Sequence record: DRR723986_6707
Direction: 5' to 3' (one strand)
DNA length: 61,214 nucleotides
Shown here: in pieces, positions 12,766 through 34,093 of the stretch
How positions within the stretch are numbered: position 1 is the first letter of the stretch
Layout: each line of letters starts with the position of its first letter
Translations under genes and position numbers: made by a program
The notes under the pieces: model-generated
Databases searched by the model: none
What the model was told of the DNA's origin: nothing
What the model saw: only the letters and a program-made list of their open reading frames with translations

Positions 12766-12983
12766 TTGTTCTTCCGGGGTGGTCGAGTGACCATGGGTAG
12801 GTGAAGTTGGCGAGAGCAGGCGAAGTTTGACGTCACCTGGGCCACGCCATATTCTACCTCAGTGCGGCCGTGTTTGGGCCGTAGTCCTCGAAGTAGCACA
12901 ATGCCAGCTTTGCGCAGTGCTTTGAACACTTCTAAGAATCCTTGTTCGCAGTTTCCCAGCGACTGTGGCTAGCCCGACGCGTT

Positions 12984-15914: not shown

Positions 15915-16254
15915 GTGAAGGTTGGCTGTTGTGGGGGCGATTTCAGTCCATTCGGTAGGACTGTACTGGATTTGGTCGGCCAATTCGTGGCTTTTGGCCA
16001 AGGAATTCAGTGGTCTGGACGAGGCCCGGTAATCCTTCTCTAGGTGGTTTCAACCGACCCTTGAGACCCCCCTCAATGCCTGTTCGGGAGGGATTTGACC
16101 CTTGATTTTGTCGCACTTTCGGTGCAAACTTGCATTCCCAACCTCAATTGACGCTGCCCTCGTGGTAGCGGCTGTCTAATTGCCTGGCAGTCTACCAACG
16201 TGGTAGTCCAGCCAAGTTACGTGTTACGAAGTTCGAAATGGAGCCCATCGGGTT

Positions 16255-16674
16255 ATGAAGAATTATTTGGTTGCCGCTCTTGCGGTCGCAATGGCTTGCT
16301 CAGCCAGTTCTAACGTTTTTGCTGTTTCCAAGCTGAAGAAGGCGTTCGCTGAGCACTACGCTGGCGAGAAAGCCAATGAAGATCTGAAGGGTCTCGTGAA
16401 GAAGGCTGGCTGCTACGTTTGCCACGTGAAGGGCGAAGACAAGAAAAAGGTACGCAACGTCTACGGCAAGGCTTTGCACGAAGCATTCGAAAAGGACAAG
16501 TTCCCGCTGAAGGAATGGTCGAAGGATCCTGAGAAGTACGCAGATCGCCTGAAGGACCTTTTCAAGAAGGTTGAAGAAGACGAAAGCGGCGACAAGAAGC
16601 ATAAAACTTTTGGTGCACGCATCAAAGCGAACCTGCTGCCGGGCGGCAACGTAGAAGGCAAGAAGGAAGAATAG
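16255..16674 (+). CDS. Small secreted monoheme c-type cytochrome
   Basis: Signal peptide, one CYVCH heme-binding motif, Lys-rich. GGAG upstream of the start. Confidence 0.8.
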   Translation: MKNYLVAALAVAMACSASSNVFAVSKLKKAFAEHYAGEKANEDLKGLVKKAGCYVCHVKGEDKKKVRNVYGKALHEAFEKDKFPLKEWSKDPEKYADRLKDLFKKVEEDESGDKKHKTFGARIKANLLPGGNVEGKKEE

Positions 16675-16704
16675 ACGCCTTCCTGAACAGGACAGATAGG
16701 ACAA

Positions 16705-16724
16705 AAGGCTAGCTCGCTAGCCTT
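16705..16724. terminator. Stem-loop after the cytochrome c gene (possible terminator)
   Basis: Inverted repeat AAGGCTAGC-TC-GCTAGCCTT. A T-run follows only on the minus strand. Confidence 0.35.
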
Positions 16725-16830
16725 CAGAGAAATGGCAATCGTCCAGGAGTTTCGACCAGGGCGTTTGCCTTTTTTTGTATACTTCCGCCCGCATTTCCGA
16801 GTTTCATCAGGTTCAAAAGGTGCCCTTGCT

Positions 16831-17475
16831 ATGCGAACTTCGCTGCTCTTGGCGTTTGCGTTAACTCCGATGTTGTCGATTGAGGACGTTCATGCTCAGA
16901 AGGCTATCCCGTCCAACGACAATGGTTGGGTCGAGATGTTCAATGGCAAGAATCTAGACGGCTGGAAGATCAACGAGAAACCCGATAGTTGGCGGGTTGA
17001 AGATGGAATGATCGTCAGCAACGGTCCCCGTTCGCACCTGTTCTTCAAGGCTGAGAAGCCGTTTAAGAATTTCCACTTCAAGGCACGCGTCAAGACAACC
17101 AAGGGTAGCAACGCGGGCATCTACTTCCACACTAAGTTCCAGGAAGAGGGTTGGCCCAAGTATGGTTACGAATGCCAAGTAAACGTCTCGCACAAGGACA
17201 AGAAGAAGTCCGGCGGCCTGTACGCTGTCGAAGACGTCGCTGATCCTCCGGTAAAGGACGATGAATGGTACACCCAAGAAATCATCGTCAAAGGCAAGAA
17301 TATCAAACTGCTGATCAACGGTAAGGCACTCGTGGATTACACCGAGCCAGACGATAAGAAGCCATTCGACAAGAATTTTGAGCGGCGTTTGGGCGAAGGG
17401 ACCATTGCTCTGCAAGCACATGATCCCGACAGCTTGGTTTATTTCAAGGATCTCAAGATCAAGCGACTGCCCTAA
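16831..17475 (+). CDS. DUF1080 (3-keto-disaccharide hydrolase-like) secreted protein
   Basis: GWVEMFNGKNLDGW, WRVEDG, NAGIYFH, GYECQV, GTIALQAHD, VYFKDLKIK. Signal peptide begins at ATG 16831. Confidence 0.88.
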   Translation: MRTSLLLAFALTPMLSIEDVHAQKAIPSNDNGWVEMFNGKNLDGWKINEKPDSWRVEDGMIVSNGPRSHLFFKAEKPFKNFHFKARVKTTKGSNAGIYFHTKFQEEGWPKYGYECQVNVSHKDKKKSGGLYAVEDVADPPVKDDEWYTQEIIVKGKNIKLLINGKALVDYTEPDDKKPFDKNFERRLGEGTIALQAHDPDSLVYFKDLKIKRLP

Positions 17476-17533
17476 CGCGATCGCCTCAGCGAGATAATGC
17501 GTTGCGAAGCATTAGAGATTTGTTAGAGTTCCT

Positions 17534-19843: not shown

Positions 19844-19854
19844 AGGCGTTTTCA

Positions 19855-20793
19855 GTGATTAAAACGGTCAACCTGACGAAGAAGTATGGCGACATGTTTG
19901 CCATCAAGGGCATCAACTTGGAGTTGGAGCAGGGGGATCTGTTCGGTTTCATTGGGCCAAACGGTGCCGGGAAGACAACGACCATGCGGATTATTGCAAC
20001 GTTGCTAACACCCACGTTTGGTGAAGCGTACGTTTGCGATAATTCAATCTATACCGATCCAAAGGAGATTCGCCGGCTTGTCGGTTACATGCCAGACTTC
20101 TTCGGTGTGTACGACGATATGACAGTGATCGAGTACCTCGAGTTCTTTGCCGCTGCGTACCGCATCAACGGTCCAGCGAGACGAAAACGTTGTGACGAAA
20201 TGCTGGACGTCGTCGACTTGGATTTCAAGCGAGACGCCTATGCAAACACGCTCTCTCGCGGGCAAACACAACGACTTGGTCTGGCGCGAGTGTTATTGCA
20301 CGACCCCCAGGTGCTTCTGCTTGACGAGCCATTGAGTGGACTTGATCCGCGTGCTCGGATTGAGATGCGGAATCTGCTCAGGAAGCTGGGGCAGATGGGC
20401 AAGACGATCATTGTCAGTAGCCACATTCTGCCGGAGTTGGCGGATATCTGTAACAAGGTCGGTATCATCAACCGTGGCGAAATGGGATTCAACGACACGA
20501 TTAGCGAATTGATCAAAGCGGTGCGTCCCCAGACCATCTTGGAAGTGTGCGTTGCTCCCGAAGAGCGTCAAGCCGATGCGGCAAAGTTTCTTGACGGGTG
20601 TGAAGCCGTAGAGTCGCTCGAGGAGAATGCCGCGAGTTTAGAGGTAACGCTGCGTCCCGGAATCGAGGATTACTCCCAGCTTTCCGCTGACCTGATCGGC
20701 GCTGGGTTTAAGCTCAAACGCTTCAATGAGAAAGAAACCAACCTCGAATCTGCCTTCATGGCGCTCACCAGAGGTTCGGGCTCGAAGATTTAA
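19855..20793 (+). CDS. ABC transporter ATP-binding protein (ABC-2/DrrA-like)
   Basis: GPNGAGKTT, LSRGQTQR, LLLDEP, SSH. GTG 19855 chosen so the gene does not overlap its upstream neighbour. Confidence 0.93.
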   Translation: MIKTVNLTKKYGDMFAIKGINLELEQGDLFGFIGPNGAGKTTTMRIIATLLTPTFGEAYVCDNSIYTDPKEIRRLVGYMPDFFGVYDDMTVIEYLEFFAAAYRINGPARRKRCDEMLDVVDLDFKRDAYANTLSRGQTQRLGLARVLLHDPQVLLLDEPLSGLDPRARIEMRNLLRKLGQMGKTIIVSSHILPELADICNKVGIINRGEMGFNDTISELIKAVRPQTILEVCVAPEERQADAAKFLDGCEAVESLEENAASLEVTLRPGIEDYSQLSADLIGAGFKLKRFNEKETNLESAFMALTRGSGSKI

Positions 20794-20836
20794 GTGGCTG
20801 TCGCTTAGTCCCGTATGCATTCACACTGTGTAGCAA

Positions 20837-20866
20837 GTGTTTGCAGGCTGGCAGCCTGCACTACGG
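20837..20866 (-). repeat. GTAG-type REP-like palindrome, copy 1
   Basis: Plus strand GTGTTTGCAGGCTGGCAGCCTGCACTACGG. On the minus strand GTAG precedes the hairpin TGCAGGCTG-C-CAGCCTGCA. 28/30 identical to copy 2. Confidence 0.7.
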
Positions 20867-20903
20867 TGTACGCTCAGATGGTTGAACCGGAAGAAGCCAG
20901 CTA

Positions 20904-21848
20904 TCAGTCAATGTCGCCAACAGTATCGCCCTGAGCGATTGATGCGAGCGATCTGTGGGTTTCTAAATCCAGTGAGTAGAACATTGGACGGACGCTGCCG
21001 TCGGCCATCGAAACGTTCCAGCTTACAGCGTGAGCGCTGCCGAAATCGTGGCACGCCAGACAGCTATCCGGCTGGTCCTGAATCGGGGAACGAGCTGCAT
21101 AACGAATCGATGAATTTGAGGCGGTGGGGTGGTCAATCCAACCACTGGCCGGTGCTCGATCGCCAAAATCTAGACCGTTGCTGTAGTTGTTGCTGCTCAT
21201 CGCTTTCTCGCCGATGAGATATGTGTTGCTTAGTCCATCGGTAATGCTCGCAGCACGCGTCCACTCGCCCAGTTTCCAAACACCATCGTGGGAGATGTGA
21301 ATAATGTTCTTATCCCCCTCCGGTTCTTCTTCGGGAATAGCAGGCCCGCCATTCATGGCATAGTCAGTTCTGCCTGCCTCGGTGCCAAAGCGTTCTTGGT
21401 AAGACTCGATGAGTGGATACGGTTGTGCGGCTCTACGGGTCGGGCAGTGCAGCCCGCCCATATTGAACTTCACCAAACGTTGATCCTCCTCAGTCAGCAC
21501 CAGGGGTTCGGCGGATCCGTAGACACCCCATCGTTCGGCAACAGTCTGTTGCTCCATGAACGAGAGCACTTTGGGTAGCCAATTCCAGCCTCGTTTTCGC
21601 GCGTCGCGTCGCCGGTGGTGATAGACAGTGAATGCGGGCTTGCGTTCTCCGGCGTATGCCGGAAGGTAGCGGAACGCCGATTCGTAGTTTAGGGCTGCCA
21701 GCGATAATTGTTTAATGTTGTTGCGGCATTGGACCTGCCTCGCTGCTTCACGAACGGCCTGAACTGCAGGCAGGAGTAGTCCGACCAGAATGGCAATGAT
21801 TGCGATCACCACCAATAGTTCGATCAGTGTCATGCCAGTTCGTCGCAT
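20904..21848 (-). CDS. DUF1559 prepilin-type N-terminal cleavage/methylation protein
   Basis: G|MTLIELLVVIAIIAILVGLLLPAVQAVREAARQVQCRNNIKQL, ITDGLSNTYLIGE and a C-terminal H-X9-DG (HAVSWNVSMADG). Confidence 0.95.
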   Translation of the reverse strand: MRRTGMTLIELLVVIAIIAILVGLLLPAVQAVREAARQVQCRNNIKQLSLAALNYESAFRYLPAYAGERKPAFTVYHHRRRDARKRGWNWLPKVLSFMEQQTVAERWGVYGSAEPLVLTEEDQRLVKFNMGGLHCPTRRAAQPYPLIESYQERFGTEAGRTDYAMNGGPAIPEEEPEGDKNIIHISHDGVWKLGEWTRAASITDGLSNTYLIGEKAMSSNNYSNGLDFGDRAPASGWIDHPTASNSSIRYAARSPIQDQPDSCLACHDFGSAHAVSWNVSMADGSVRPMFYSLDLETHRSLASIAQGDTVGDID

Positions 21849-22083
21849 AGTCCGCCCTCCTAAACTTTGCCGCCTGTCCCCCTGGATTCTAACAGTTTCA
21901 CGCGTCAGTTGGACTTAGGTTAGGGCATGGTGCAATCCGCTGGTTCTTTGAGCAGGTGAAACGCACTCAGAGACCCCTGCCCCAAAATTGCAGTGGGCGA
22001 ACCAGCTGGTTTCTGGTGGGTTAGCATCCAACCTACTAGGAGTTTGGCGACACCGCGAGAGCTGCTGGTGTTTTGGTTGGTAC

Positions 22084-22113
22084 GTGTTCGCAGGCTGGCA
22101 GCCTGCCCTACGG
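22084..22113 (-). repeat. GTAG-type REP-like palindrome, copy 2
   Basis: Plus strand GTGTTCGCAGGCTGGCAGCCTGCCCTACGG, same orientation as copy 1. Confidence 0.7.
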
Positions 22114-22129
22114 GGTGCGAGTCGGGGGC

Positions 22130-22924
22130 TTAGTAGCGGGCGAGGTCGGTCTTGCCGGGGCAACCAAGTTCGGCGGTTAGGCGTTCGGCTTGGGCGGTTA
22201 GCATGCCAAGGTCGCTGCCTATGGCGATAAACTGCATTCCGTCCGCCACGCGGGCCCGGGCCTGCTGGGGAGTAAGAACGTGCATTCCAGTCGGGCAGCC
22301 TACTTGCTTGCCAGTTGCGATTACTTCCTGAATCGATGCTTCCAGTTGTTCATCATTCGGGAACTGGCCATCTGGGGCGCGCATCTGGAATTTTAGGTCG
22401 TTCGGGCCAACAAAGATGGCATCACATCCAGGCAGGGAATAGATCTCGCGGGCGTTGCGGACTCCCTCTGGGCTCTCGGTCTGGAGGATGACGATGGTCT
22501 CGTCATTGGCGCGTTGGTAATACTCGCCAACTGGGCAGTCAAAATTGAGATTGTGCATGCCGCCGCCGCTGCTGCGTGTCCCTGTCGGTGGATACTTGGC
22601 TGCCGCAATGGCCTGTTTCGCTTGCTGAACGGTGTCGACCATTGGGACAACAATTCCGTAGGCTCCTGCGTCCATGGCTCGCTTGATCCAGTCGTGGGAG
22701 CCGATCGGAACTCGAATGAGTGGGACGCATCCGGCGTCTGCGATAGCCGCAACGACGGCAGCGGTTTCACGCCAGTCGTAGGGGGCGTGTTCCACATCCA
22801 GGCACAACCAGTCGAAGCCCACATTGGCGAGGACTCGGGTAGCATGCAGGTGACCAAGCGTTACCCAGGTGCCAAATGTTGTTTCGCCCGCGGCCAACTT
22901 CCGCTTTACTTTGTTTTCACGCAT
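22130..22924 (-). CDS. HpcH/HpaI family aldolase
   Basis: GFDWLCLDVEH, LIRVP, DAGAYGIVVPMV, KYPPTGTR, LQTES, DAIFVGPNDL. Confidence 0.9.
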   Translation of the reverse strand: MRENKVKRKLAAGETTFGTWVTLGHLHATRVLANVGFDWLCLDVEHAPYDWRETAAVVAAIADAGCVPLIRVPIGSHDWIKRAMDAGAYGIVVPMVDTVQQAKQAIAAAKYPPTGTRSSGGGMHNLNFDCPVGEYYQRANDETIVILQTESPEGVRNAREIYSLPGCDAIFVGPNDLKFQMRAPDGQFPNDEQLEASIQEVIATGKQVGCPTGMHVLTPQQARARVADGMQFIAIGSDLGMLTAQAERLTAELGCPGKTDLARY

Positions 22925-22958
22925 CGACGATTCCGCAGTAGTCTGTAAGAGTAAATTG

Positions 22959-24086
22959 CTAGGAGCCAGCCTCAGCCAAGCGGTTCAGGATTTCGATTCC
23001 TTTGTGAATCGTTTCATCGGGGGCCGCGTAGGATACTCGGAAGTGCGTGTCGTGCTGGCTGAATATCTTGCCGGGTATGATCAGCAGTTCATTTTCGATC
23101 GCCTTGAGGACAAAATCCGTGCCCGTTCCATAAGGAGCCTTCGGGTAGACGTAGAAGGCTCCGCCAGGTTGAGTGAACTCGAACCGATCCTTGAGTCCGT
23201 CAACAATCAGGTCGCGCTTGCGGCTGTAGTCCGCGCGGAATCCAGACATCTGGACATCCATCGCGGCCAGCCCTGCCCACTGTGCGGGCTGTGGAGCGCA
23301 GACGAACGAAAACTGCTGCAGTTTGGTCATGGTCTCGATTACAGCCGATGGGCCGTGAACCCAGCCGACTCGCCAGCCCGTCATCGCATGGCTCTTGGAG
23401 AATCCGTCGATGACGATTGTGTTCGGGTTGATTTCGGCCGCGGATGGGCCGCTGCTATCGTCGTAAATGAATTCACTGTAGATTTCGTCGGATAGCAACG
23501 CAATGTTATGCTTGGCAGCCAGTTCGGCGATTCCACGGACTTCTTCACTAGTGGGAGTAACACCAGTAGGATTCGAGGGTGAATTGAAGAGAATCAACTT
23601 TGTGCGCGGCGTTATCGCCTTGGCAACTTTGTCGAGGTCGATGCGGAAGTCTGGGTGCGTGTCAATGTATACCGGAACACCTCCAGCCAAGCTGACGAGG
23701 GGGGGATACATGACAAAGTACGGATCAAAGATAATCACTTCATCGCCGGGATTGACCAGGCTGAGCGTCGTCAGGACAAGGCCGCCGCTGGTTCCAGAGG
23801 AAACAAAGACATCGCGGTCTTCATGTTGGTAGATGCTGTCGATTCGTTCCTTAAGCCGTTCCCGAAGTGGCCCGATGCCTTGCGTTGGCGAGTAGGCGTT
23901 CTTGCCGCTTTGGATGGCATCGATGCAGGCATCTTTAACCGATTGCGGCACGTCAAAGTCGGGTTGCCCAATGCTGAGATTCACTGGGTTCTCGAGACTT
24001 GCGGCCAGGTCAAAGACCTTGCGAATACCGCTGCTGTCAAAAGTCTGCGTACGTTGAGCGATCCAGTCACTTGGATTTGACATCAT
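22959..24086 (-). CDS. PLP-dependent aminotransferase class I/II
   Basis: NLSIGQPDF, NSPSNPTG, SDEIY, GFSKSHAMTGWRVG (PLP lysine), GAFYVY. Confidence 0.93.
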   Translation of the reverse strand: MMSNPSDWIAQRTQTFDSSGIRKVFDLAASLENPVNLSIGQPDFDVPQSVKDACIDAIQSGKNAYSPTQGIGPLRERLKERIDSIYQHEDRDVFVSSGTSGGLVLTTLSLVNPGDEVIIFDPYFVMYPPLVSLAGGVPVYIDTHPDFRIDLDKVAKAITPRTKLILFNSPSNPTGVTPTSEEVRGIAELAAKHNIALLSDEIYSEFIYDDSSGPSAAEINPNTIVIDGFSKSHAMTGWRVGWVHGPSAVIETMTKLQQFSFVCAPQPAQWAGLAAMDVQMSGFRADYSRKRDLIVDGLKDRFEFTQPGGAFYVYPKAPYGTGTDFVLKAIENELLIIPGKIFSQHDTHFRVSYAAPDETIHKGIEILNRLAEAGS

Positions 24087-24390
24087 ATTTTGCCTGGCCG
24101 AAACTTGCTAACGGAAAGCGTCGATAGAGGAGGGCGGTTGCGATCCCCGCCGCAACCACCGCTTTATTTCTGGTGCCGCGGAGGTTGCCCACGGATGCTA
24201 AGAACTTATCACGAAACATCTATCGCTTGCAGACCAGGCAGGCATGAGCACCGCTGAGTTTTGAATGGCCAGCCGACGAGCGAAGTTGGAATTCCGGCCC
24301 GGAGCTTTGTGGCCGCGAGTCAGAAGACGATTTCTGAGTGTGATTTGTGAAGCAGGATTCGTGTCCCTCATCCATTACGGCTGGCGGACT

Positions 24391-25362
24391 TTATTGAGCT
24401 GATGAACGCGTGCCGCGCGGAGAGGCGGCAATGGGTTGTCCGTGGGGCAGGGGGCGAGCAGCCGAAAGGAAGCCCGCGTCAAACAGTTTCGCTTTGAGCT
24501 CGCGAAATGCATCGAAGGAATCGGGGTAAACCCAAACAGTAATAACCGTCTCTCGAGGATCTCGACTGGCGAGTTCCAGGGCAAGTCGACCGGTTGGTGC
24601 CATTGCTTGTGAGATGGATTCGGCGGCCGCCGACGGTAAGACTTCAAGCGTGAAGTGATCCAATTCAAAGCCGCCAGGTACGGGTGCGATCGCGTAGTGC
24701 ATGACAAAGCCTGAGACTGGACCAAGGGTGTCTTCGAGCTTCTGTCGTGAGGCTTGGCGACGTGCGGTGAGCGGTACTTGTCGCTTGAGCATTTCGACCA
24801 GTCGAAACCAGGGAATTGCGGTCACTTTGCCGTCCTTGAGTTGGACGTGCATCTCTTTGTTGTAAACCGTCTTGGCCATTGGTGTAGGAAGGTGTTCCAG
24901 GATCACCGTTGGTCGCGGTTGCTCTTCATCGCTCATGGCTTGATCAGCAAGGTCATCCAACTTCGTCTTCAGTCGTTCGATTTCCGTAGATCGCTCGACG
25001 GCTTGCCGTTTCTCTTCGTCCGCCTCGCGCAAGCGGTTGTCGACATCGTCTTTGGCAGCCGCCAGTTTTGCGAGCATGGCATCTCGTTCCATCTTGCGGT
25101 ACTGACTCTCCATTTCGTGTCTTTTGATCATCAAGTCTTGCTTGATCATCTCGTCTCGCATGGCCGCCACGCTTTGCTTGGAGGCTTCGATTTCCTCAGA
25201 CTCCTGTTCCTCAGTCAGTGTTCGTGTGTACTCTTCAGCCTCAAGACGCGTTTTGGTTCCGATGACGACGACCAGAATAATCAGGATCCCGACCAAGTTG
25301 GCGGTCGTATCCAGGAAGGAGTCTTCTCCTACAGAGTCTTGTGAGGTTGCTCGGCGACGCAT
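24391..25362 (-). CDS. Single-pass coiled-coil protein, ExbD/TolR/MotB-like partner that retains the TM Asp
   Basis: Short basic N-terminus, DSFLD plus TM (TTANLVGILIILVVVIG), long coiled coil, C-terminal domain (VITVWVYPDSFDAFRELKAKLFDAGF). Third gene of the MotA/TolQ operon. Confidence 0.6.
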   Translation of the reverse strand: MRRRATSQDSVGEDSFLDTTANLVGILIILVVVIGTKTRLEAEEYTRTLTEEQESEEIEASKQSVAAMRDEMIKQDLMIKRHEMESQYRKMERDAMLAKLAAAKDDVDNRLREADEEKRQAVERSTEIERLKTKLDDLADQAMSDEEQPRPTVILEHLPTPMAKTVYNKEMHVQLKDGKVTAIPWFRLVEMLKRQVPLTARRQASRQKLEDTLGPVSGFVMHYAIAPVPGGFELDHFTLEVLPSAAAESISQAMAPTGRLALELASRDPRETVITVWVYPDSFDAFRELKAKLFDAGFLSAARPLPHGQPIAASPRGTRSSAQ

Positions 25363-25449
25363 GGGATCGTTCTGTATGCTAGAGCGTGGTCGTTTGCAAA
25401 GTGGTTGCTCGGGTTCCGTAGTGGTTGGGCCCGAAAAGGTTGGAAGCCG

Positions 25450-27504
25450 CTAACGTCTATTCGTCGCGGCTGGTTGTTCAGCCGATTCGTCCGCTCGGAT
25501 ATCTATGCCGCTGGCGAGAAAAAGTCGTTCAAGTTGTTCATATCGCCACATCGCACCGGGGCGGACTTCGACAACAAGTTCTGGTCGCCAGTAGCCGCCT
25601 TGCAGGGCAAGTCCCCAGGACTTGATACGAGCGCGGATCACTTCGGCGAGTCTCTCGGCTCGTTGCTGAGGCGTTCCTTCCATCTTGATGACGACTTCCT
25701 TTTCGATCCGGCTGTAGGGCACGACGATCCAGGCGTCTTCTGTGCATATCAAACGAATCGTTCGGCGAACGGGCGTCTGCTGGCGTTGTCTGCCGCCCGT
25801 GACCCAGTTCTCGCCTTGGCTCCGTGCAACCGGTTGTGCTGCTGCGGAGGAGGATGCGGATTGTCGAGAGCTGGATCTGCTGGAGCCGCCGCCACTTGCA
25901 GAAGACCTTTGACCCGCGGAGCCACCAGCGCCTTGTTGCCCCGATTGTTGCCCGGCCTGTCCACCAGCCTGTTGTCCAGAAGAACCACCGCCGCTGGATG
26001 AAGCACTCATCCCAAAGTCAGGGATTGATATTTGGTTGCCGCCAGACATCTGCGGTGAGCCCATGGCGCTCTGCCCGGACGACCCGGCTGGAGCGTTACT
26101 GCCAGAGTTGGATCCACCAATGCTGCTATTGCCTGTTCCGCCGTCGAATTGTGACCCGGATTGATATTGGCCGGTCTGTTCAGCGCCGGCGGTCATCGAT
26201 CCGTCGTAGCCGAGTGCCTGATTGACGGGGTGCGAAGCGTCGCTTGGATCGAAGGCAAAGCCGTTGCTCGAGTTCGATGCAATGGATTGCTCAAGTGCGT
26301 CGAGTTGCGCGCCGGAAAGTCCGGAGCCGTATCCGTTGCCGCCTGATTGAGCGAATCCAGCTCGCCCGCTGCCCGGTCCAACTGCGCTTCCGGCAGGTTG
26401 ACCCATGGATTGTGTCGCCGAGTAGCCTCCTCTGGATGATTCGCCTGAGCCGCGGTTGCTACCGTCACTTCCTCCGGACATTCCACCGCCAAATTCAGAA
26501 CCAGAGTCTCTGCCACTGAAATTGCCACCGGCCAGGCTGCCGCGATCATACTGAGATGTGCTGCCGCCAGCTAAAGAGCCGCCACTTCCTCTCGGCATGC
26601 CGTATTTTCCTGGCATGGCTACCAGTAAGGCAGCTTGGCGATCTCGGGCTGAGGCGATTGTTCGGGCCAGTTTTTGGTCTAGGCCTGGCTTGGGTTCGGG
26701 GAATGCAAGTTCTAGGTCCGATCGAACCAGTTCATAACCGAATTGGTCGTCCCAGCCAGCCATCGCGGCACGTGCTCGAACGTAAGATTCGATCCCCTCT
26801 GGGCGTACGATCAATAGTGGGTAAGCCGTGCTGGTAACCGCGCCGTTGGCAGGTTTGTACTCGGAGCGAATCGTGCGAAGGGCCGCATCCAAAGGATTGC
26901 CAGGGCCGTAAGGAGGTCTTAGGTCGTCTGTCGAAAGGCGAACACCCTCGGGTTGAATCAAGACGCCATCCGCGTCGCATTCTAGGTAGATTGGTCGGCG
27001 GTGCGTGCCGTTGGGGCCGTCGTAGGGAATGATGGCAAAGATTGGCTTGTCGCCCTCGTCGGGCTTTTCTAGTTCTTTGTTCTTGAGTTCCTCTGCCGCT
27101 TCGGCAATCTGCTTTTCGAGTTCAGTGAGTTGTGCGAGCTGTTCTTGTTCCGTCTCTTCTTCGTCGGTTGAGTTCAAAGCTTGCAGCGTTTGGTTAACTT
27201 GTTCCAGTTCGTCTTCGATTTCAGCGATGTGCTCTTCGAAGTGTTGGAGGCGAAGACGTTCTTTCTCAAGCGCGATGCGGCCTTCGTAGAGTCGGTTTTG
27301 CGCGGAGCGATCGAGCACCTCTAATTGGCTCTCCATCAGCTCGCGCTTCTCGACGTGTTCTTGTTTAGCTTCCGAGGTAGCCGCTTGAGCGCCTGCGACG
27401 ATTAGCATCAAGATGAGTACGAGCGCACCCATGGTGCATAGGAGCACCGCCAAGAATGGGAACATGCTGGGGGCGAGTGATTCGCCTCGAGCTGACCGGC
27501 TCAT
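25450..27504 (-). CDS. Single-pass coiled-coil protein with two ExbD-like domains and a Gly/Ser/Gln-rich linker; no Asp in the TM
   Basis: FPFLAVLLCTMGALVLILMLIV TM, Glu-rich coiled coil, repeated RRxIxLxC and VRP motifs, about 260-aa low-complexity linker. 4-bp overlap with the upstream gene. Confidence 0.6.
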   Translation of the reverse strand: MSRSARGESLAPSMFPFLAVLLCTMGALVLILMLIVAGAQAATSEAKQEHVEKRELMESQLEVLDRSAQNRLYEGRIALEKERLRLQHFEEHIAEIEDELEQVNQTLQALNSTDEEETEQEQLAQLTELEKQIAEAAEELKNKELEKPDEGDKPIFAIIPYDGPNGTHRRPIYLECDADGVLIQPEGVRLSTDDLRPPYGPGNPLDAALRTIRSEYKPANGAVTSTAYPLLIVRPEGIESYVRARAAMAGWDDQFGYELVRSDLELAFPEPKPGLDQKLARTIASARDRQAALLVAMPGKYGMPRGSGGSLAGGSTSQYDRGSLAGGNFSGRDSGSEFGGGMSGGSDGSNRGSGESSRGGYSATQSMGQPAGSAVGPGSGRAGFAQSGGNGYGSGLSGAQLDALEQSIASNSSNGFAFDPSDASHPVNQALGYDGSMTAGAEQTGQYQSGSQFDGGTGNSSIGGSNSGSNAPAGSSGQSAMGSPQMSGGNQISIPDFGMSASSSGGGSSGQQAGGQAGQQSGQQGAGGSAGQRSSASGGGSSRSSSRQSASSSAAAQPVARSQGENWVTGGRQRQQTPVRRTIRLICTEDAWIVVPYSRIEKEVVIKMEGTPQQRAERLAEVIRARIKSWGLALQGGYWRPELVVEVRPGAMWRYEQLERLFLASGIDIRADESAEQPAATNRR

Positions 27505-28949
27505 GCCGCTTTCCTAGTCGAAAGTCCTTCGTCTAGATCATCATCCCGCGAGGCATCGTCGAGACCATTGTCCTGAGCCGACGGTGTCGAATCGTTTGCG
27601 GGACGGACTGAATTACGGCGGGGTTTGAGTGGGTGACGGATGATACCGCTGCGTTCTAAGCTGGTACCAAGCATTGCGACTGCTTCGCCGATGCACTGGG
27701 TTGCTTCGTGCAGGCGGTCGATGTCCCGAAGTTGCTCGAGTTTGTGGTTGCTTTCATCTTCAACGTTTCGCAGCTCAGCGGTTGCCTCAACCAGCTCCTT
27801 GAGCACCTCGCTCTGAGCGTGTATTTCTCGTTGTGATGACTGGAGTTGTCGTGCTTGGTCGCTAAGCGTTGTTTGCCACTGCTGCGCACGCAAGTCCGCT
27901 TGGCGATTGCTCTCGGTGTAGATCTGATCTAGGCGGTCGGTGTGTTCATTGAGCGCCCCGGAAAGCTGCTTACCAATGGCAGCCTCAGTCTGCTCGCAGA
28001 CTCCGTCCTGCCACTGTTTCCAGTGCTGGTATGTTTCGGCGATGGAACGCGACCAGATGGCGGCCTGTTGTTCCGTTAGGCTTTGTAGTCCGCCAATTAG
28101 CTCGCCAATTGACTCACGAACAGGAGCTAGCAGAGCGGCATGACCTTCGCTTGCATCGGAATCGAGAAACCCAAGCAGTGTCTCAGAGGCACGGTTGTCG
28201 ATTCGCGTCAGCAGTCGCATTTCGATCCGATTGACGGCGAACTGAATGAACATCGACGTCACTGTCAGAACGAGCGCGATGGCTGTTGTATCAAATGCTA
28301 CGTATAGGCCTGCGGTGAGCTGGTTCATTGCTTCCTGCTGTTGGGTAGCGAGCAGTTGCGTGTCCAGTTGACCGAGAGTCTTTGAAATCCCCAGAACAGT
28401 TCCCAGGAATCCAAGCATCGGCATTGCCCAGTGGATGATCCGCAGCAGGCTTTGGTTTTCGTGCTGTTGATCGGCATCGGCGTCGCCCAACGAACGAAGG
28501 TCCGCTTCAAGGTCATTCTTGCCCAGTCGCCGGTTTTGCATTTCCAGCGCACCGTAGACTCGTCCCACTAACCAGCTAGACTGCATCGCCGGCGGCAGTG
28601 ACTCAAGATTTGCAGTGAGCCAGCTTGCGCGTTGGGGCAGTTCGATTTCATCGCCGTCGGAAACCAAACGCGTTAGTATTGTGGAGCCCCGGTTTGTCAG
28701 GCTGTTCTGACGCGACATGTCCAGCCACTTCATGACCAAGGCCGTTAGACCCATTAAAAAGAGACTGACGCAAGCCACCGCAACTGGGTGGGACAGGCAG
28801 TACCGCCTGAAGAATTCAGTGTTCAGTGGTCCTAATAGGATCAGCGCGTAGAAGGTCCCTGCCAGGCCTCCGCCGATCAGGAGAACTGGCGGTAGCGGTA
28901 ACGAAAAACTTGTCGGTCGGTTGAATCGCTGTTGTTTCACTTGGTTCAC
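27501..28949 (-). CDS. MotA/TolQ/ExbB proton-channel family protein with long C-terminal helical tail
   Basis: AMPMLGFLGTVLGIS...AGLYVAFDTTAIALVL helical-hairpin signature, two N-terminal TM segments and a Gln/Glu-rich tail of about 240 aa. Confidence 0.85.
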   Translation of the reverse strand: MNQVKQQRFNRPTSFSLPLPPVLLIGGGLAGTFYALILLGPLNTEFFRRYCLSHPVAVACVSLFLMGLTALVMKWLDMSRQNSLTNRGSTILTRLVSDGDEIELPQRASWLTANLESLPPAMQSSWLVGRVYGALEMQNRRLGKNDLEADLRSLGDADADQQHENQSLLRIIHWAMPMLGFLGTVLGISKTLGQLDTQLLATQQQEAMNQLTAGLYVAFDTTAIALVLTVTSMFIQFAVNRIEMRLLTRIDNRASETLLGFLDSDASEGHAALLAPVRESIGELIGGLQSLTEQQAAIWSRSIAETYQHWKQWQDGVCEQTEAAIGKQLSGALNEHTDRLDQIYTESNRQADLRAQQWQTTLSDQARQLQSSQREIHAQSEVLKELVEATAELRNVEDESNHKLEQLRDIDRLHEATQCIGEAVAMLGTSLERSGIIRHPLKPRRNSVRPANDSTPSAQDNGLDDASRDDDLDEGLSTRKAA

Positions 28950-29391
28950 CGCTTGTGTATCGCGACCACGATGGCGTAACTGTTAGTTGAACCATCCGCT
29001 TGGGCGTTGCTTTTACAGCCTTGTAAAGCAACAATCCGCAGCCATGCCGATTCGTTGAAAGGGCATCGCTTGCATGTGCTACTGGCAAGGCATCGCTGGT
29101 GGATTGTGAAGATCGCGGCCCGCCGCGTCTAGGTAGATTTTTTCTATACAGACTGCTGCAAATGTTTAGCTAGCGTAGGAGCGCAATGGAAAGCTGCTGT
29201 TGCGGTGGGGCTGTGTTTTTGGCGATAAGCAATGAACAAAATTATGGTGCAACCCAGAGCGGCAAGCGTCCGGTGCGCGTGCTTCGTTTTGCGGGGCGAT
29301 GCGTCCGTGCCTGGTTCTGGATCAGAGATCCGGCTTTGACCCGCCGGTGTGTGCCAGCCGGGGATGGGCTTTGACCGACAGGAGAAGTGCG

Positions 29392-29733
29392 ATGAAGGAA
29401 TGGCTAGGGAGGACGGTTTTTGTCCTTGCGATCGGTCTAGTTGCTTACACTTGTTTGACGGTCCCGGGCGTTAGCCAGGGAGTCAGGACAGGCTCTGATG
29501 CTCACCGGTCCACGGCCAGCGGCGGCCTTCAGGTCGTTTCGAGCACTTTGCCAAGTGGTTTTCAAGAGCTTGCCGTCATCGATCCAGCGGCTCCGTCAAT
29601 TGCCATCTACCATATCGACAACGCTGGACGACTACTTCTGCGCAGTGTTCGCAACATCCAGGGCGACTTGAGAATGGAAGAATTCAACACTCAAAGTCCG
29701 CTGCCAAGCGAGCTGCGCGCTCTGCAGCCCTAA
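29392..29733 (+). CDS. Small exported or membrane-anchored hypothetical protein
   Basis: AGGAG RBS before ATG 29392, N-terminal hydrophobic segment, beta-rich body (LAVIDP..IAIYHID..GRLLLRSVRNI.GDL). Confidence 0.7.
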   Translation: MKEWLGRTVFVLAIGLVAYTCLTVPGVSQGVRTGSDAHRSTASGGLQVVSSTLPSGFQELAVIDPAAPSIAIYHIDNAGRLLLRSVRNIQGDLRMEEFNTQSPLPSELRALQP

Positions 29734-30161
29734 GACGCCCGTGCCATGTAATCATGGCCGAAAAGCAGCATTTCTGGCCAGTCAGCGGCCCCTTCGCGCG
29801 CGAGCTCTAGTGGGCTGGCAGCCCTGCTCAGTGAGTTGTCTGGCTGCAAACAAGACCCAAATGTCCAGTATTCTCGGGTGTGATTCAGCTTTTAAGGCTT
29901 ATCGGGGTCACTCGGCTAGATCGCAGAACGCGGCAAAGAAAGCTCGTTTTTCCTGCTCAGGGGTTTGGGATCGCCGCTCGCTTTAGTTAGGATGGGTAAA
30001 TTGCGGCGTGTAGTGCGAGTGCGTGTGGGCGTTCCGAGGCCTGTAAACGCAATAAAATGCTCGTCTTTGCCGGACATCTCATCTAAAATTTACCGTAAAC
30101 GAAGCGCGAAACTCGGTGGAATTCCACCCGAGCGTCTTTTCGATCAGGAGTTCGTGGCAGT

Positions 30162-31487
30162 ATGTCGAATTTTGTTTCGCTTGATGAAGCAGCAAAGAAG
30201 CTTGGCGTCAGTGCCGATGAATTGGTCGAAATGCGTTCGCGAGGCGATATTTTCGGCTATCGCGACGGGGCAAGCTGGAAATTCAAGCCAGAGGAAATTG
30301 AGCGCGTCGCTTCTGAGATGATGGGCGACGCTCTGGACGAAGACCCTGCTGGTTCGTCGATTCTGGTTTCGGGTAGTTCGCACGGTAGCACGATTGGTAG
30401 TGACATTGTCACTGCCGACGAAGATTCCGACGTTGAACTGGTTGCTGATCCTAACTCGGGAAGCGACGTTCGGCTGGTTAGCAAGGGCGATAGCGAATTG
30501 CAGCTTGCCGGAAGCGACGCTGGGCTGGAAATGGCCGACAGCGACGACGACGATGACGAACTGCAATTGGCATCTGACGATGGTGACGATCTGCTAGCCG
30601 CTGCTTCGGATGCAGCATCTTCACTAGGTTCGTCACTGGGCAGTGATTTGGAATTGGCTGGCTCTGACCTTGGTCTTGGCTCCAACGCAGGCAGTGATAT
30701 TGAGATCAGTGATTCTGATGCACTCAATCTTGCTCCATCAGACGACGCTTCCAATGTTCTGGGCTCGGATCTCAACCTGGCAAGCGATGGTGGCAGTGAG
30801 CTGATCAAGGGCGATAGCGACCCAGCGATCGACTCTGGCTCCCTTGATCTGCAAGGCAGCGATTTGGAATTGAGCGACGGCGATGACCTAGTGCTTAGTG
30901 GCGGTAGCGATTTGGCGCTCGGCAGCGATAGTGGCATTAATTTGATGAGTCCTGCTGACAGTGGCATCTCTCTCGATGAGCCATTGGATCTGGCTGCCAG
31001 CGGAATTTCCGGTCTGGACCTAGCCGCGGAAGGTTCCGACGTCGAAAGCCCTTCGGCAAGCGGATCGGCCGTCGACTTCCAGCAAGATGATGAGTTCAAT
31101 CTTTCTCCATCGGGCAGCCTTGAAACTGACGACGACAGTGGTTCTCAAGTAATCGAGCTCGAGGATTCATCTGAGTTTGGTGACGCGCCTGTTGCAGTTC
31201 CCGATGCTGGTGGTCTCGACGATATCTCCGCAGTTGATTCTGGCGGATTCGATGATGGCGGATTTGGTGAGCCTGAGCCTCAGGGGGCGGCCGCGGTTGC
31301 TGCTGTGCCTGACGTGCAATTCTCGCTTTTCGAAGTCTGCGTTCTACTTTCGACGTTGCTGGTACTCTGCTTTGGTGGCATTCTGGTCAGCGACGTTGTG
31401 CGAAACCTATGGGCCTGGAGCGAATCAGACAGCTCGCTCACCAGCGGATTCACGGACATGGTCTTGAGCGCTTTAGGGCTGAAGTAG
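30162..31487 (+). CDS. Excisionase/MerR-like HTH protein with acidic repeat region and C-terminal TM anchor
   Basis: N-terminal VSLDEAAKKLGVS...GDIFGYRDGASWKFKPEEIER, about 335 aa rich in D/S/G/L, TM VCVLLSTLLVLCFGGILV. AGGAG RBS upstream. Confidence 0.8.
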   Translation: MSNFVSLDEAAKKLGVSADELVEMRSRGDIFGYRDGASWKFKPEEIERVASEMMGDALDEDPAGSSILVSGSSHGSTIGSDIVTADEDSDVELVADPNSGSDVRLVSKGDSELQLAGSDAGLEMADSDDDDDELQLASDDGDDLLAAASDAASSLGSSLGSDLELAGSDLGLGSNAGSDIEISDSDALNLAPSDDASNVLGSDLNLASDGGSELIKGDSDPAIDSGSLDLQGSDLELSDGDDLVLSGGSDLALGSDSGINLMSPADSGISLDEPLDLAASGISGLDLAAEGSDVESPSASGSAVDFQQDDEFNLSPSGSLETDDDSGSQVIELEDSSEFGDAPVAVPDAGGLDDISAVDSGGFDDGGFGEPEPQGAAAVAAVPDVQFSLFEVCVLLSTLLVLCFGGILVSDVVRNLWAWSESDSSLTSGFTDMVLSALGLK

Positions 31488-31622
31488 ATCCGGCACAAAC
31501 GTCCGTGATTCATCTTCCGCCAAGTGCGATTTCCTGCTAGCGTCCACCATAGCTTCGCGTCACGGCTTTTCGGCCACGGCGAGTGAGCTTGCTGGAAACG
31601 GACTTCATAGCAGGAGGCGATC

Positions 31623-32084
31623 GTGGTGTCCCCACGCAGTCAATACTGTCACTCGAATAGGCCCCAATCATCGGTAGCAGTGCGTCCCTGCGCTCGCCGG
31701 GTGATTGCTTTGCTCCCAGCGCTTTGCCTGTTCCTCTGTGGTTGCAACTCGCTTTCTAACCGCTCCTTGGTCAAGCAACTCCAAGGCGAAAACGAACGGC
31801 TGATCAGTGAGTTTCAGGCTCAGAAGCAGATCGCCAAACGCTTGAACGAACGGAACCAGCTCCTCGAGGGGCGTTTGGCTGAGAGTGAAAAGCTGATTGC
31901 AAAGGAATTGGGACCATCGCGGATCTCGAGTTTGCCGCCTGCCCGTCCAACCAATAGTCCTCGCTCTTTCGGTCCAGCCAACGGTAATTCGGCCTATGGC
32001 GGATCGGCCAGCAGCGGGGGAGCTTCTGGTTCTTCTACTACCCAGGGCGCCGTGGACACCAGTCTTAGGTGGGAATCTCGCTAG
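31623..32084 (+). CDS. Putative coiled-coil lipoprotein
   Basis: AGGAGG RBS before GTG, hydrophobic stretch ending LCGC (lipobox-like), coiled coil, Ser/Gly-rich tail. Confidence 0.65.
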   Translation: MVSPRSQYCHSNRPQSSVAVRPCARRVIALLPALCLFLCGCNSLSNRSLVKQLQGENERLISEFQAQKQIAKRLNERNQLLEGRLAESEKLIAKELGPSRISSLPPARPTNSPRSFGPANGNSAYGGSASSGGASGSSTTQGAVDTSLRWESR

Positions 32085-32330
32085 TAGCTCGGTGATTCTT
32101 AGTCCTTGTTCGCCATTCGCCCTTTTTATCTGCGTGGCGAATTGACGCGACGATCAGCCTTTGAAGGTGATTTGCGGGTACTTTCTTGCCCTCCGTCCGC
32201 TAGACTAATCCTGATGGATTGGGAGCAGGAGTAGGGAGATTCCTTTTACCAACCTGGAAATGTAAAGTCGCAGTGCGATGGCATATTTTCGGATGGGGAT
32301 ATTCGATTCTACGGTTGCCGCACCAAGCCC

Positions 32331-32560
32331 TCCTGGTGACCAAATACTGCGTGAAGATCGCTACTGCCAAGCTGAGTTGCGTTGTCGCGTGCCCGTTCCC
32401 ACTCAATCAATTTAGTGCTCCAATTGCCTGGTGGTTGTTACCGCAAAGCCAGCAATCCAACCCGGCGCTGTTGAGTGGGGGATTTTTCATGCTCGACCCA
32501 AAATTGTCTCAGTCCCGATGTGGGTTCAAAGTCGTACAATCTACAGGCCCGCTTCAGGGA
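32331..32560 (+). ncRNA. Candidate rod-shaped ncRNA, possibly 6S-like
   Basis: Nested inverted repeats in a roughly 620-bp intergenic gap. The 3' side has GTGGGTTCAA...CAGGGA. G-U pairs favour the plus strand. Folded by eye only. Confidence 0.35.
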
Positions 32561-32703
32561 ACCAGCGTAGAGGCTACGTTCACGCGAATCGATGGCTTGG
32601 CTTAGCCAGTTTTACATCAGTTCAAACGGTTTTAGCCCATCCTGCCGGTCTCTTCCTAATAACAGTGGTCCCTTTTACTACCAGACTAAATTCAGCTTTC
32701 CCA

Positions 32704-33942
32704 ATGCACAGTACATATATGCCGTCAACTTCTTCACGCACTCGCTATAGCGCTACAGTCAGCGCGGTGGCATTAGTGATGGTTGCGATCGGATGTGACA
32801 GCGGTCCAAAGATTTCGGTCTATAAAGTTGATCGAGCGGACAGCGAAGTTCGAACTGAGAGTCCTCCGCCAGCCGTTGCGGTGACTGAGCAGATTCACGG
32901 CGCTATCGTGCCCAACGGAGACAGTGCGTGGTTCTTCAAGCTTCGCGGCGATGCCGAATTGACTAGGAAGTTCTCCGACGAATTTCGTCAGATTGTTGAA
33001 GGCGTGAAATTCGAATCCGGCGAACCCAAGTGGACGCTGCCAGAGCAGTGGAAAGACGCTCCTGGCGGTGGTTTCACTTACGCCAAGTGGGTTGAGCAGT
33101 CGTCTGGTTTGGTGGCAACAGTTAGCGTTCTGTCGATTAACGACGATTGGCAGTCCTACTTGGTAATGAACATCAATCGTTGGCGAGGCCAAGTGTCACT
33201 GCCGGGGCAACAGTGGGATGCGATGGAGCAGGAGCTGGAGGTTCTCGACACACTTTCCACCGAGCAGGATCGGCCGGCATACTACGTCAGCATGACGGGC
33301 AAGGGCGGGCAAGGATCGATGGGCGGAGCACCGTTTTTGGAGGCGATGCGAAGGGCTCAGCAAGCCAAAGCCGCTGCCGAAGCGGACGGCGATGCAGCAA
33401 GCGACAAAGCAGCCAATGGTGATGTCAGCGATACAGCTCCCGAGATAACCGGAGACGAACCGATCGCCAGCGGCGAAATGGCAGGCGGTAAAGATTCGTC
33501 GCAACCAAAACCGCTGCAGTACGTTGTTCCGGAAGGTTGGTCCGAAGTACCGCCGAAGAATTCGATGCGGAAGGCTCAGTTTGAAGCAACAGCCGAAGGC
33601 CAAGCCGTTGAAGTCATCGTGTCGCAGGCCGGTGGAGCCATCGAGCAAAACATGGGTATGTGGCTGGGGCAGGTCGGTGGTAAACCATCGGAAGAATCGG
33701 TGGCTTCGATTGTGAAAGCAGCCAGTACGGTTGAAACCAAAACAGGAACTGCAGCGATTTATCAAATCGTCGGTAAAGAGCACGGTGGCGAGAAGTCCGA
33801 GAGCATGCTCTTGGCTGAGATCCCAATTACTGACAGCTATTCATGGTTTGTCAAAATGGTTGGCGATGCGGATGCAGTGGATGGACTTTCCGATAGCTTT
33901 GAAGAATTCGTCCGCTCTGTCGAGTTTGATAAACCTGAATAG
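32704..33942 (+). CDS. Putative lipoprotein with internal domain duplication, upstream of ccsBA
   Basis: Hydrophobic signal ending AIGC. Two similar modules (WTLPEQW...NINRWRGQV and YVVPEGW...NMGMWLGQV) and WFFKLRGD/WFVKMVGD. Start 32704 or 32719 is more plausible than 32431. Confidence 0.7.
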   Translation: MHSTYMPSTSSRTRYSATVSAVALVMVAIGCDSGPKISVYKVDRADSEVRTESPPPAVAVTEQIHGAIVPNGDSAWFFKLRGDAELTRKFSDEFRQIVEGVKFESGEPKWTLPEQWKDAPGGGFTYAKWVEQSSGLVATVSVLSINDDWQSYLVMNINRWRGQVSLPGQQWDAMEQELEVLDTLSTEQDRPAYYVSMTGKGGQGSMGGAPFLEAMRRAQQAKAAAEADGDAASDKAANGDVSDTAPEITGDEPIASGEMAGGKDSSQPKPLQYVVPEGWSEVPPKNSMRKAQFEATAEGQAVEVIVSQAGGAIEQNMGMWLGQVGGKPSEESVASIVKAASTVETKTGTAAIYQIVGKEHGGEKSESMLLAEIPITDSYSWFVKMVGDADAVDGLSDSFEEFVRSVEFDKPE

Positions 33943-34093
33943 ATTTGCAGATGCCGGTCTGAACGTTCAACGTTCGGTGGTCCTTTGACGGGACTACCAA
34001 AAGCGATTCGGCAACATAGAAACACACTGGAAGACTTGCTGAGCCAGCGAACCCGCTGGGGCTCAGTTAAAGAGAATAGGCGAGAGGTGGCAT

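Follow-up and report, generated by a model that had tools for sequence, protein, structure and literature searches.

A planctomycete operon for a candidate ion-driven motor with two unlike axle subunits, one of which lacks the pore aspartate

Does a motor of the MotA/ExbB kind need two identical aspartates in its axle? Current models of MotAB, ExbBD, TolQR, and ZorAB have the Asp residues of two identical B subunits take turns, and a locus in the 61,214-nucleotide stretch of record DRR723986_6707 (the window, meaning the whole stretch analyzed) raises the question of whether one of them can be lost. Three adjoining open reading frames (ORFs), all on the minus strand and in the order A-B1-B2, encode a MotA/TolQ/ExbB-family membrane subunit with a long tail (A, 28949..27501, 482 aa), a putative single-pass axle subunit without the Asp (B1, 27504..25450, 684 aa), and a putative single-pass axle subunit with a conserved Asp (B2, 25362..24391, 323 aa). 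We read the module as a new family of ExbBD/Zorya-like ion-driven motors with a B1-B2 hetero-axle, and assign this reading as a whole a probability of about 0.55. That A and both B proteins make up a working motor of the MotA/ExbB type is the safer part of it and is likely to be correct; we infer the stoichiometry, the coupling ion, the fixed part, and the cellular task.

The membrane motif of B2 reads GEDSFLD18TT and that of B1 MFPFLA19VL. By hhalign, the N-terminal helices of the two proteins prove homologous (96.9% probability, E = 1.8e-10), and Ala19 is aligned opposite Asp18. The relationship is visible at the profile level only, and BLASTP of B1 against B2 is not significant (E = 0.16). 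The pattern seen in the window recurs in 100 related loci, comprising the 80 best (near) loci, from a species-representative genome scan that gave 389 species with a relative, and 20 distant loci from a phylum-wide sample; taxon names of relatives are record titles and source names. The aligned B1 residue in 89 complete N-termini is Ala in 84, Thr in one, and Asp in four (motifs FPFLAVL in 84, FPFLTVL in one, FSYLDGL in one, and GSFLDVL in L124, L189, and L190). The Asp motif of B2 is found in 101 of 101 loci (99/99 plus 2/2 further ones). Among the 150 best B2 cluster representatives, 145 have the motif with Asp, four are off-motif with an Asp in the N-terminus, and one has Val, as judged by motif match alone. 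The Asp/Ala pattern is not chance. The initial annotation had set DSFLD-TT against FPFLA-VL with Ala at the equivalent position and had left the conservation of this difference to be checked; it is borne out on both points.

The four Asp-bearing B1 proteins form a lineage within class I, the class to which the window belongs. They come from genomes G258, G386, G578, and G587 (B1 at L116, L124, L189, and L190; A at L133, L134, L191, and L192), and three of them have a B1 helix nearly identical to that of the accompanying B2, which hints at gene conversion from B2. Their A genes are unlinked and read AFNTT in all four cases, where 79 of 81 linked A proteins have AFDTT, and they also carry GTVVHFG in place of GTV.GI. 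Residue 220 of A in class I is Asp in 79 of 81 proteins that accompany an Ala or Thr B1 and Asn in four of four that accompany an Asp B1, as compensation would have it. The pattern suggests that Asp220 of A is tied to the loss of the B1 carboxylate, and that both changes probably belong to one evolutionary event. Asp220 could conceivably compensate for the lost B1 Asp, a possibility weakened by the paralogous class III.

A-like genes occur in 54 of the 401 genomes of the phylum sample (A profile, E <= 1e-15), and 23 such loci in the range L135-L158 were inspected. Class II A proteins are short (~260-300 aa) and tail-less, with the motif AFETT, AFDTT, or AFHTT, and both of their B types carry Asp, as LF(S/A/V)FQD in the B1 type and LELLLDT in the B2 type. 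Class III A proteins are tailed (489-589 aa) and read AFDTT in three and AFNTT in two of the loci where the motif was read; that of L135 has, by eye and at this one locus, a Cys-rich zinc-ribbon-like motif at its N-terminus. The class III B1 type has Ser at the pore position, as FPF(L/I)S(I/V)L in nine of nine FPF-type B1 proteins seen, and the B2 type, where one adjoins, has Asp in (L/M)DSLLDTM. The B1 proteins of classes II and III span only 259-303 aa, without linker or second head, and each module holds one B1-type and one B2-type gene. Since the paralogous classes each keep one of either type, the unlike pair is ancient and represents the ancestral design. In the modules seen, B2 keeps its Asp throughout, and B1 has lost its own in both tailed classes. 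With Asp found in the variant loci and in class II, B1 can therefore carry a pore Asp at this column, as would be expected of a real pore subunit. The window shows all the features of a class I module: a tailed A with AFDTT, an FPFLAVL B1, an SFLD B2, and stalks of matched length; the 80 near loci and 18 of the 20 distant ones have them in common with it.

Protein A matches Pfam PF01618 (MotA_ExbB) over residues 142-247 (28209..28526) with E = 4e-12 and 46.4 bits, where the cut-off is 22.9, a domain that takes in its last two membrane helices; the NCBIfam ExbB, TolQ, and MotA matches all fall far below their cut-offs. All 120 relatives listed bear the PF01618 label, and the name that sources give to relatives, one of Aureliella helgolandensis among them, is 'MotA/TolQ/ExbB proton channel family protein'. 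Hydrophobic helices are predicted at approximately residues 19-40, 55-76, 168-190, and 212-238, with a 90-residue loop between the second and third and basic residues beside the inner ends. Because of this MotA-like four-helix layout and the flanking basic residues, the C-terminal tail would lie in the cytoplasm. The predicted helical tail comprises residues 240-482 (27504..28232, ~240 aa). Between residues 277 and 440 its hydrophobic residues recur with a peak period of 3.66 residues, and in a separate test of the 3.5-3.67 band the observed power is reached by 7 of 2000 shuffles. Trp299 and Leu427 are invariant, and insertions vary the length of the tail in the other order. The gene first described as a MotA/TolQ/ExbB subunit with a helical tail of about 240 aa, followed by two single-pass proteins, is accordingly just that.

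The pore-type motifs of A are GFLGT184V and, in the last membrane helix, A218-F-D220-T221-T222 (28284..28298), in which a carboxylate stands beside pore-type threonines. Motif inspection suggests that they are equivalent to the pore threonine motifs of ExbB and ZorA. Across 81 class I A proteins, Gly180 is conserved in 79, Thr184 in 76, Asp220 in 79, Thr221 in 77, and Thr222 in 78; the two Asp220 exceptions among linked A proteins are both aberrant sequences. These motifs bear on the idea of a static scaffold or ion channel that derives from a motor and no longer rotates, for instance a periplasmic spacer or a membrane-to-wall tether. Such a role would suit the loss of one of the two carboxylates that 5:2 models alternate, the long strut-like build with a helix and a head in each B protein, and the lack of a conserved output partner nearby, as A, B1, and B2 are the only genes that the 20 distant loci share. 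The near-invariance of B2 Asp18 and of the A Thr/Asp pore motifs in two orders and in paralogues is hard to explain without ion coupling, and we regard a static role as improbable.

Separately, the A genes at L040 (280-1689) and L041 (4099-5571) are aberrant over both pore helices. The former lacks the GFLGTV and AFDTT motifs and the latter is apparently frameshifted there; decay or assembly error could be responsible.

Both B proteins consist of a short basic N-terminus, one hydrophobic helix, a long helix, and globular α/β head(s). In B2, the membrane helix covers approximately residues 12-37 (25252..25329) and includes Asp18 (codon 25309-25311) as well as Asp14; it is followed by a periplasmic helical stalk at residues 38-142 (24937..25251), an α/β head at residues 168-313 (24424..24861), and a C-terminal peptide, S314-P-x-G317-x-x-S320-x-A-Q323 (24394..24423), defined by conservation in 43 sequences. 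The AlphaFold2 (AF2) model, built from an alignment of the 43 sequences, has a mean predicted local distance difference test score (pLDDT) of 79.9 and shows a continuous helix over residues 13-142 (pLDDT 81-97), a low-confidence hinge, and the head at residues 169-313. Invariant residues in these diverse sequences are Asp14, Phe16, Asp18, Asn22, Val24, Gly25, and Ile29 in the helix; Glu170, His172, Pro184, Pro215, Gly218, Thr275, Trp277, Tyr279, and Pro280 in the head; and Ala301, Arg303, Pro304, Ser314, Gly317, and Ser320 in the last head strand and C-terminal peptide, while Gln323 is conserved in at least 90%. The C-terminal ten residues are conserved in both orders and unstructured in the model, and may serve as a docking peptide for a partner.

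The stalks of the two B proteins change length together. The distance between the pore residue and the first residue that is invariant in the head (Ala19-Pro171 in B1, Asp18-Glu170 in B2) is 152 residues in either protein of the window. Among 86 loci its values lie between 149 and 248, with a Pearson r of 0.96 and a Spearman coefficient of 0.65 (many ties). Because relatives share lengths, independent contrasts were computed on a tree of concatenated heads; their r is 0.82, which none of 10000 permutations attains, and they have the same sign in eight of eight large and 27 of 38 non-zero contrasts. In Planctomycetales, B1 and B2 both have added Pro/Glu-rich spacers just after the membrane helix. 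The stalk lengths co-evolve, which is consistent with a paired B1-B2 stalk. The two proteins had also been described as coiled coils. Their single-pass nature holds, and the coiled coil is weakly supported: the B2 family profile has a period peak at 3.50 residues that is reached by 18 of 500 shuffles, and the heptad periodicity of B1 is not significant, its family profile having two rows only. In single sequences neither B stalk gives a significant heptad signal, as the power observed is matched in 181 and 716 of 2000 shuffles.

The organization of the genes is conserved as well. The stop of A and the start of B1 overlap by 4 nt (ATGA), and a gap of 87 nt separates B1 from B2. A ends in Ala in 30 of 32 aligned relatives (Ala or Ala-Ala; window 27501-27506), likely because the B1 start lies across its final codons (GCATGA), a sign of conserved translational coupling of A and B1. 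The order A-B1-B2 is kept in 80 of the 100 loci (62/80 near, 18/20 distant), and of the 18 near loci that have no A, 17 lie at a contig end, with the break just upstream. Promoter and terminator scans of the operon remained at chance level.

It could be argued that one A ring serves two alternative motors, an active A5B2_2 and an A5B1_2 that is inactive, plugged, or given over to another task, with the B dimers being exchanged. Stator-type exchange is known in flagellar motors, and an Asp-less homodimer would make a natural "off" form. ExbD-like heads also homodimerize, as in entry 8pek ("dimeric, periplasmic domain of ExbD"). Exchange would have no need of matched, co-evolving stalk lengths, however, and the fixed gene order, the A-B1 translational coupling, and the presence of exactly one gene of each B type in every paralogous class also speak against it. 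We give this explanation little credence.

B1 is built on the same plan as B2 and then extended. Its membrane helix covers approximately residues 15-40 (27385..27462), with Ala19 (codon 27448-27450) where ExbD-type subunits have Asp, and is followed by a periplasmic helical stalk at residues 41-144 (27073..27384), a first α/β head at residues 155-300 (26605..27042), a disordered Gly/Ser/Ala/Gln-rich linker at residues 304-552 (25849..26595, pLDDT < 50), and a second α/β head at residues 565-684 (25453..25812). The AF2 model, from an alignment of 37 sequences, has helix over residues 17-144 (17-113 and 118-144; pLDDT 82-94 over blocks 21-110), the first head at 171-296, disorder over 304-552, and the second head at 577-671. 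The 249-residue linker contains 65 Gly, 60 Ser, 25 Ala, and 23 Gln. The two B1 heads are homologous to one another (hhalign probability 95.5%, E = 1.3e-8), and the second has a weak link to the B2 head (22%). The heads on both B proteins, together with the linker and second head of B1, go beyond the initial annotation.

This architecture lends itself to the most serious alternative, a canonical 5:2 motor of A5 and a B2 homodimer in which B1 acts as a TonB/TolA-like force transducer outside the ring or along the B2 stalk. B1 lacks the Asp, and is built like TolA or TonB, with an N-terminal anchor, a long spacer that includes the disordered linker, and a small C-terminal domain. The stalk co-variation also fits a three-helix B1:B2:B2 stalk. 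Moreover, the transducer role is otherwise vacant, as TolB_N is found in none and TonB_C in only one of five related genomes (G001, G002, G003, G098, and G193). On the other hand, the helix of B1 has Ala at the Asp column and is homologous to that of B2, and B1 has Asp at this column in the four variant loci and in class II. The short class II and III B1 proteins, devoid of linker and second head, are still paired with a B2 type. B1 has no Pfam match to TonB_C or TolA at E <= 1. The His-containing SHLS-type motif of TonB/TolA anchors is missing from FPFLAVLLCTMGAL, and the B1 helix FPFLAVLLCTMGALVLIL has no His at all. On balance, a transducer role for B1 is unlikely, and the hetero-axle is preferred.

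How widely is the module distributed? The titles of the 80 near loci name Pirellulaceae, Pirellula, Aureliella, Roseimaritima, Anatilimnocola, or an unresolved planctomycete, and the nearest named relatives of one distant locus are Gimesia species; all named relatives belong to Pirellulales and Planctomycetales. B2 is present in 149 of 151 sampled genomes of the order of G001, whose locus is titled Pirellulaceae bacterium SH449, and in 99 of 101 sampled genomes of the order of the Gimesia-like genome G098, with a single match in most genomes of both. The module is near-universal and mostly single-copy in these two planctomycete orders. In the even phylum sample, a class I A orthologue is found in 23 of 401 genomes and the close-relative B2 profile matches 26; this sample was supplied without completeness values, so that "not found" does not equal absent. 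These counts answer the question of phyletic range that had been left with the original description. In a collection clustered at 90%, B2 has 1628 relatives at E <= 1e-3, and those that bear a name are all called "hypothetical protein". Among 1.84 billion representatives, it has 3524 clusters (50% identity) at E <= 1e-3 and 922 at E <= 1e-30, and a search of the ESM Atlas with the B2 head returned only unnamed clusters, with scores of 0.88-0.89.

The same distribution bears on a Zorya-like role in anti-phage defense, in which a tailed MotA homologue works with a MotB-like partner. The best PADLOC matches are indeed ZorA2 for A (3.3e-7) and ZorB3 for B1 (2.5e-5), and A has a long tail, predicted to be helical and cytoplasmic, as in ZorA. 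These matches are confined to the shared membrane core, residues 160-243 of A and 19-86 of B1, and the other weak B1 match, PRK09040 (2.1e-4), is likewise limited to the helix region, both B1 matches falling within residues 17-86. Effector genes, of the ZorC/ZorD type or any other, are not conserved nearby, and no OmpA-type peptidoglycan-binding domain was found. The module is single-copy and near-universal, and sits between house-keeping genes with flanks conserved in close relatives, which is the pattern of a core gene and not of a defense island. The module is not Zorya, and a defense function of this kind has a very low probability.

If the hetero-axle reading is right, A, B1, and B2 would together be a single membrane machine akin to MotAB, ExbBD, TolQR, and ZorAB, driven most likely by protons. 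A ring of A would turn about an axle for which B1 and B2 supply their membrane helices, inserted as a heterodimer. Protons would pass by way of B2 Asp18 against A Thr184 and Thr221/Thr222, with B1 Ala19 providing a permanently uncharged partner helix, and A Asp220 may assume part of the role of the lost carboxylate. Two length-matched periplasmic helices of ~100 residues (~16-19 nm if straight) would hold the ExbD/TolR-like heads off the membrane, and the ~250-residue flexible tether and second head of B1 could reach a target farther out in the envelope. On the cytoplasmic side, the five A tails might assemble into a helical shaft, like a short Zorya tail. Heads and tether would then hold B1-B2 fast in the wall or outer layers, and rotation would fall to the A ring and its tail; alternatively, the tail could be fixed and the axle rotate and wind. 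The two orders are described as having polar budding and an enlarged periplasm (PMC7716846), and our guess is that the machine has a house-keeping envelope function tied to these features; the roles suggested at the outset, in envelope remodeling, budding, or uptake, are likewise conjectures from the taxon range. In its most specific form, the proposal is a single-carboxylate 5:1:1 rotary motor with an obligate B1-B2 hetero-axle, in which only B2 cycles a proton and the lost charge rests partly on A Asp220, serving the budding planctomycete orders without Tol-Pal as a core envelope engine that couples a cytoplasmic shaft to heads anchored in the wall or outer membrane in growth or budding. We put this version forward tentatively, as a doubtful though definite model.

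Several findings weigh against the hetero-axle, in which the B1 and B2 helices would sit together inside one A ring. The co-variation of the stalks would also fit B1 and B2 proteins that merely span the same periplasmic gap, or a B1:B2:B2 bundle. Class III breaks the Asp220 compensation rule, with the B1 Ser accompanied by either Asp or Asn in A. An adjacent A is missing at five loci (L069, L116, L124, L189, and L190). At the first of these, B1 (911 aa, with Ala) and B2 are present on a 6.5-kb contig, and no A-like frame is found in the 2.3 kb upstream or elsewhere on the contig (hidden Markov model search, E <= 1e-3). Comparison of the B1 and B2 helices and heads with 24 ExbD sequences from related genomes by hhalign is not significant (probability 0.3-3.5%); the weak alignments nevertheless set B1 Ala19 and B2 Asp18 on the ExbD Asp. 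Outside the membrane helix and stalk, neither B protein has a Pfam, NCBIfam, or PDB sequence match.

Neither B1 nor B2 matches PF02472 (ExbD/TolR) in Pfam at E <= 1, and in G001 their locus is not among the eight PF02472 matches of the genome (E <= 1e-5). Pfam finds no OmpA-family peptidoglycan-binding domain and no vWA domain in either. Sequence-profile searches of the PDB with the B1 and B2 alignments return coiled-coil noise only, and Foldseek searches of the PDB with the two models find nothing at E <= 1e-3. When the Foldseek candidates are re-aligned, the top-ranking folds for the heads of B1 and B2 include ExbD or TolR, with modest scores. A wide structural alignment of the whole B2 model (VIA-align) recovers only long coiled coils, because the stalk dominates. 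The membrane-helix Asp of the ExbD/TolR type is present in B2, where Asp18 is invariant, and absent from most B1 proteins. Taken at the sequence level, B1 and B2 appear to be a family of their own that would work like ExbD, TolR, and ZorB and is not classifiable under them.

The module shares features with each of the known systems. As in ExbB-ExbD as well as TolQ-TolR, the operon starts with A, whose core belongs to the same Pfam family, and the B proteins resemble ExbD in being single-pass and in having an ExbD-like pore motif, PF(L/I)(D/A)V in B1 and SFLD in B2. Unlike ExbB and TolQ, A has four predicted membrane helices and the cytoplasmic tail. Unlike ExbD and TolR, the B proteins have a helix of ~100 residues between membrane helix and head and form an unlike pair, one member of which is without the Asp. 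No TonB/TolA-type partner was found by the module, in contrast to ExbBD-TonB and TolQR-TolA, and TolB_N is likewise missing from the five related genomes. MotA-MotB and PomA-PomB share the four-helix layout of A, in which a large cytoplasmic loop joins the second helix to the third, and pore motifs of the 5:2 type; unlike MotB and PomB, the B proteins have no OmpA-like peptidoglycan-binding domain and no flagellar genes lie nearby. The related genomes contain many paralogues of the canonical families, with seven PF01618 proteins in each of three genomes, among which module A scores lowest (48.7-55.5 bits against up to 109), and 7-10 ExbD proteins in each of the five, often as tandem pairs.

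Zorya offers a parallel to the tail, having a MotA-family ring subunit with a long helical cytoplasmic extension and providing the best PADLOC matches. According to PMC11946911, ZorA has for its tail a pentameric coiled coil, ~70 nm long and twisted in the right-handed sense, which the 3.66-residue periodicity of the module A tail recalls. ZorB, by the same account, is homodimeric, has a peptidoglycan-binding domain, and carries Asp26 in each copy; ZorB Asp26 contacts ZorA Thr147 and Ser184 (PMC11946911). The module differs in that its tail is about half as long, it has no ZorC/D genes, and it belongs to the core of whole orders and is not patchy.

Unlike B pairs have precedents. The tandem ExbD pairs of the related genomes are one, and Myxococcus AglR-AglQ-AglS is another, with one TolQ-like and two different TolR-like subunits; AglQ and AglS are short, TolR-like, and both keep the Asp, which sets the module apart. 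AglRS is listed among non-flagellar homologues in PMC12505986 (mBio 2025). A further case, from PMC12204202 (Mol Biol Evol 2025), is provided by heterologous pairs of pore-helix vWA proteins that adjoin tolQ-like genes, mainly in Proteobacteria and Verrucomicrobia, with both partners keeping the Asp; that paper also mentions the SHLS-type anchor motif. As described there, a tolQ-like gene without a recognizable tolR/exbD is followed by two unlike proteins whose N-terminal helices are predicted to enter the pentamer and which bear the periplasmic output themselves, as the B proteins do. The module is unlike these pairs in having no vWA domain, one partner without Asp, helical stalks, and a tailed A. 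None of these precedents (tandem ExbD, vWA pairs, and AglQ/AglS) has a partner without the Asp; its natural loss from one is the new point. A full-text literature search, which does not extend to supplementary tables, found no published description of an A-B1-B2 module in the text it covers. The asymmetric motor initially proposed as undescribed remains so to that extent, while the unlike B pair as such is not new, given the tandem ExbD and PMC12204202 precedents.

A conserved natural motor with one Asp replaced would be a ready-made test of the alternating-Asp scheme. It would come with a replacement series, Ala here and Ser in the sister class, alongside related forms in which both Asp residues are kept. 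Should the single-carboxylate motor prove true, two alternating Asp residues would not be obligatory for motors of the 5:2 type. For planctomycete biology, the module represents a near-universal, single-copy, and wholly unannotated machine, limited to two orders in the samples searched. Its carriers look approachable experimentally because relatives fall in genera with cultured species (Aureliella helgolandensis, Gimesia maris).

The surroundings of the operon vary among relatives. In the window, its neighbors encode an aminotransferase, an HpcH-type aldolase, a DUF1559 pilin-like protein, an ABC ATPase, an HTH_17 protein, and a ResB/CcsA fusion; the downstream aminotransferase is conserved among close relatives only. 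The absence of a TonB/TolA, OmpA, or flagellar gene nearby, as noted at the outset, agrees with a scan of 12 neighboring ORFs (12942..37756), in which no TonB_C, TolA, OmpA, or flagellar family is matched at E <= 1e-3. Divergent from A on the plus strand lies a 144-aa ORF (29299-29733) with one hydrophobic helix and no family match. Its position is kept in many closer relatives (38-73% identity), and it is not found there in Pirellula-like or distant loci. Also on the plus strand (30162-31487), the 441-aa HTH_17 protein combines an N-terminal HTH_17 domain (E = 1e-6), a long acidic repeat region rich in Asp/Ser/Leu/Gly, and a C-terminal hydrophobic helix, and it is found upstream of the operon in many close relatives. 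Finally, a 1220-aa ORF (34094-37756, plus strand) fuses a ResB-like region to a cytochrome c assembly domain of the CcsA type.

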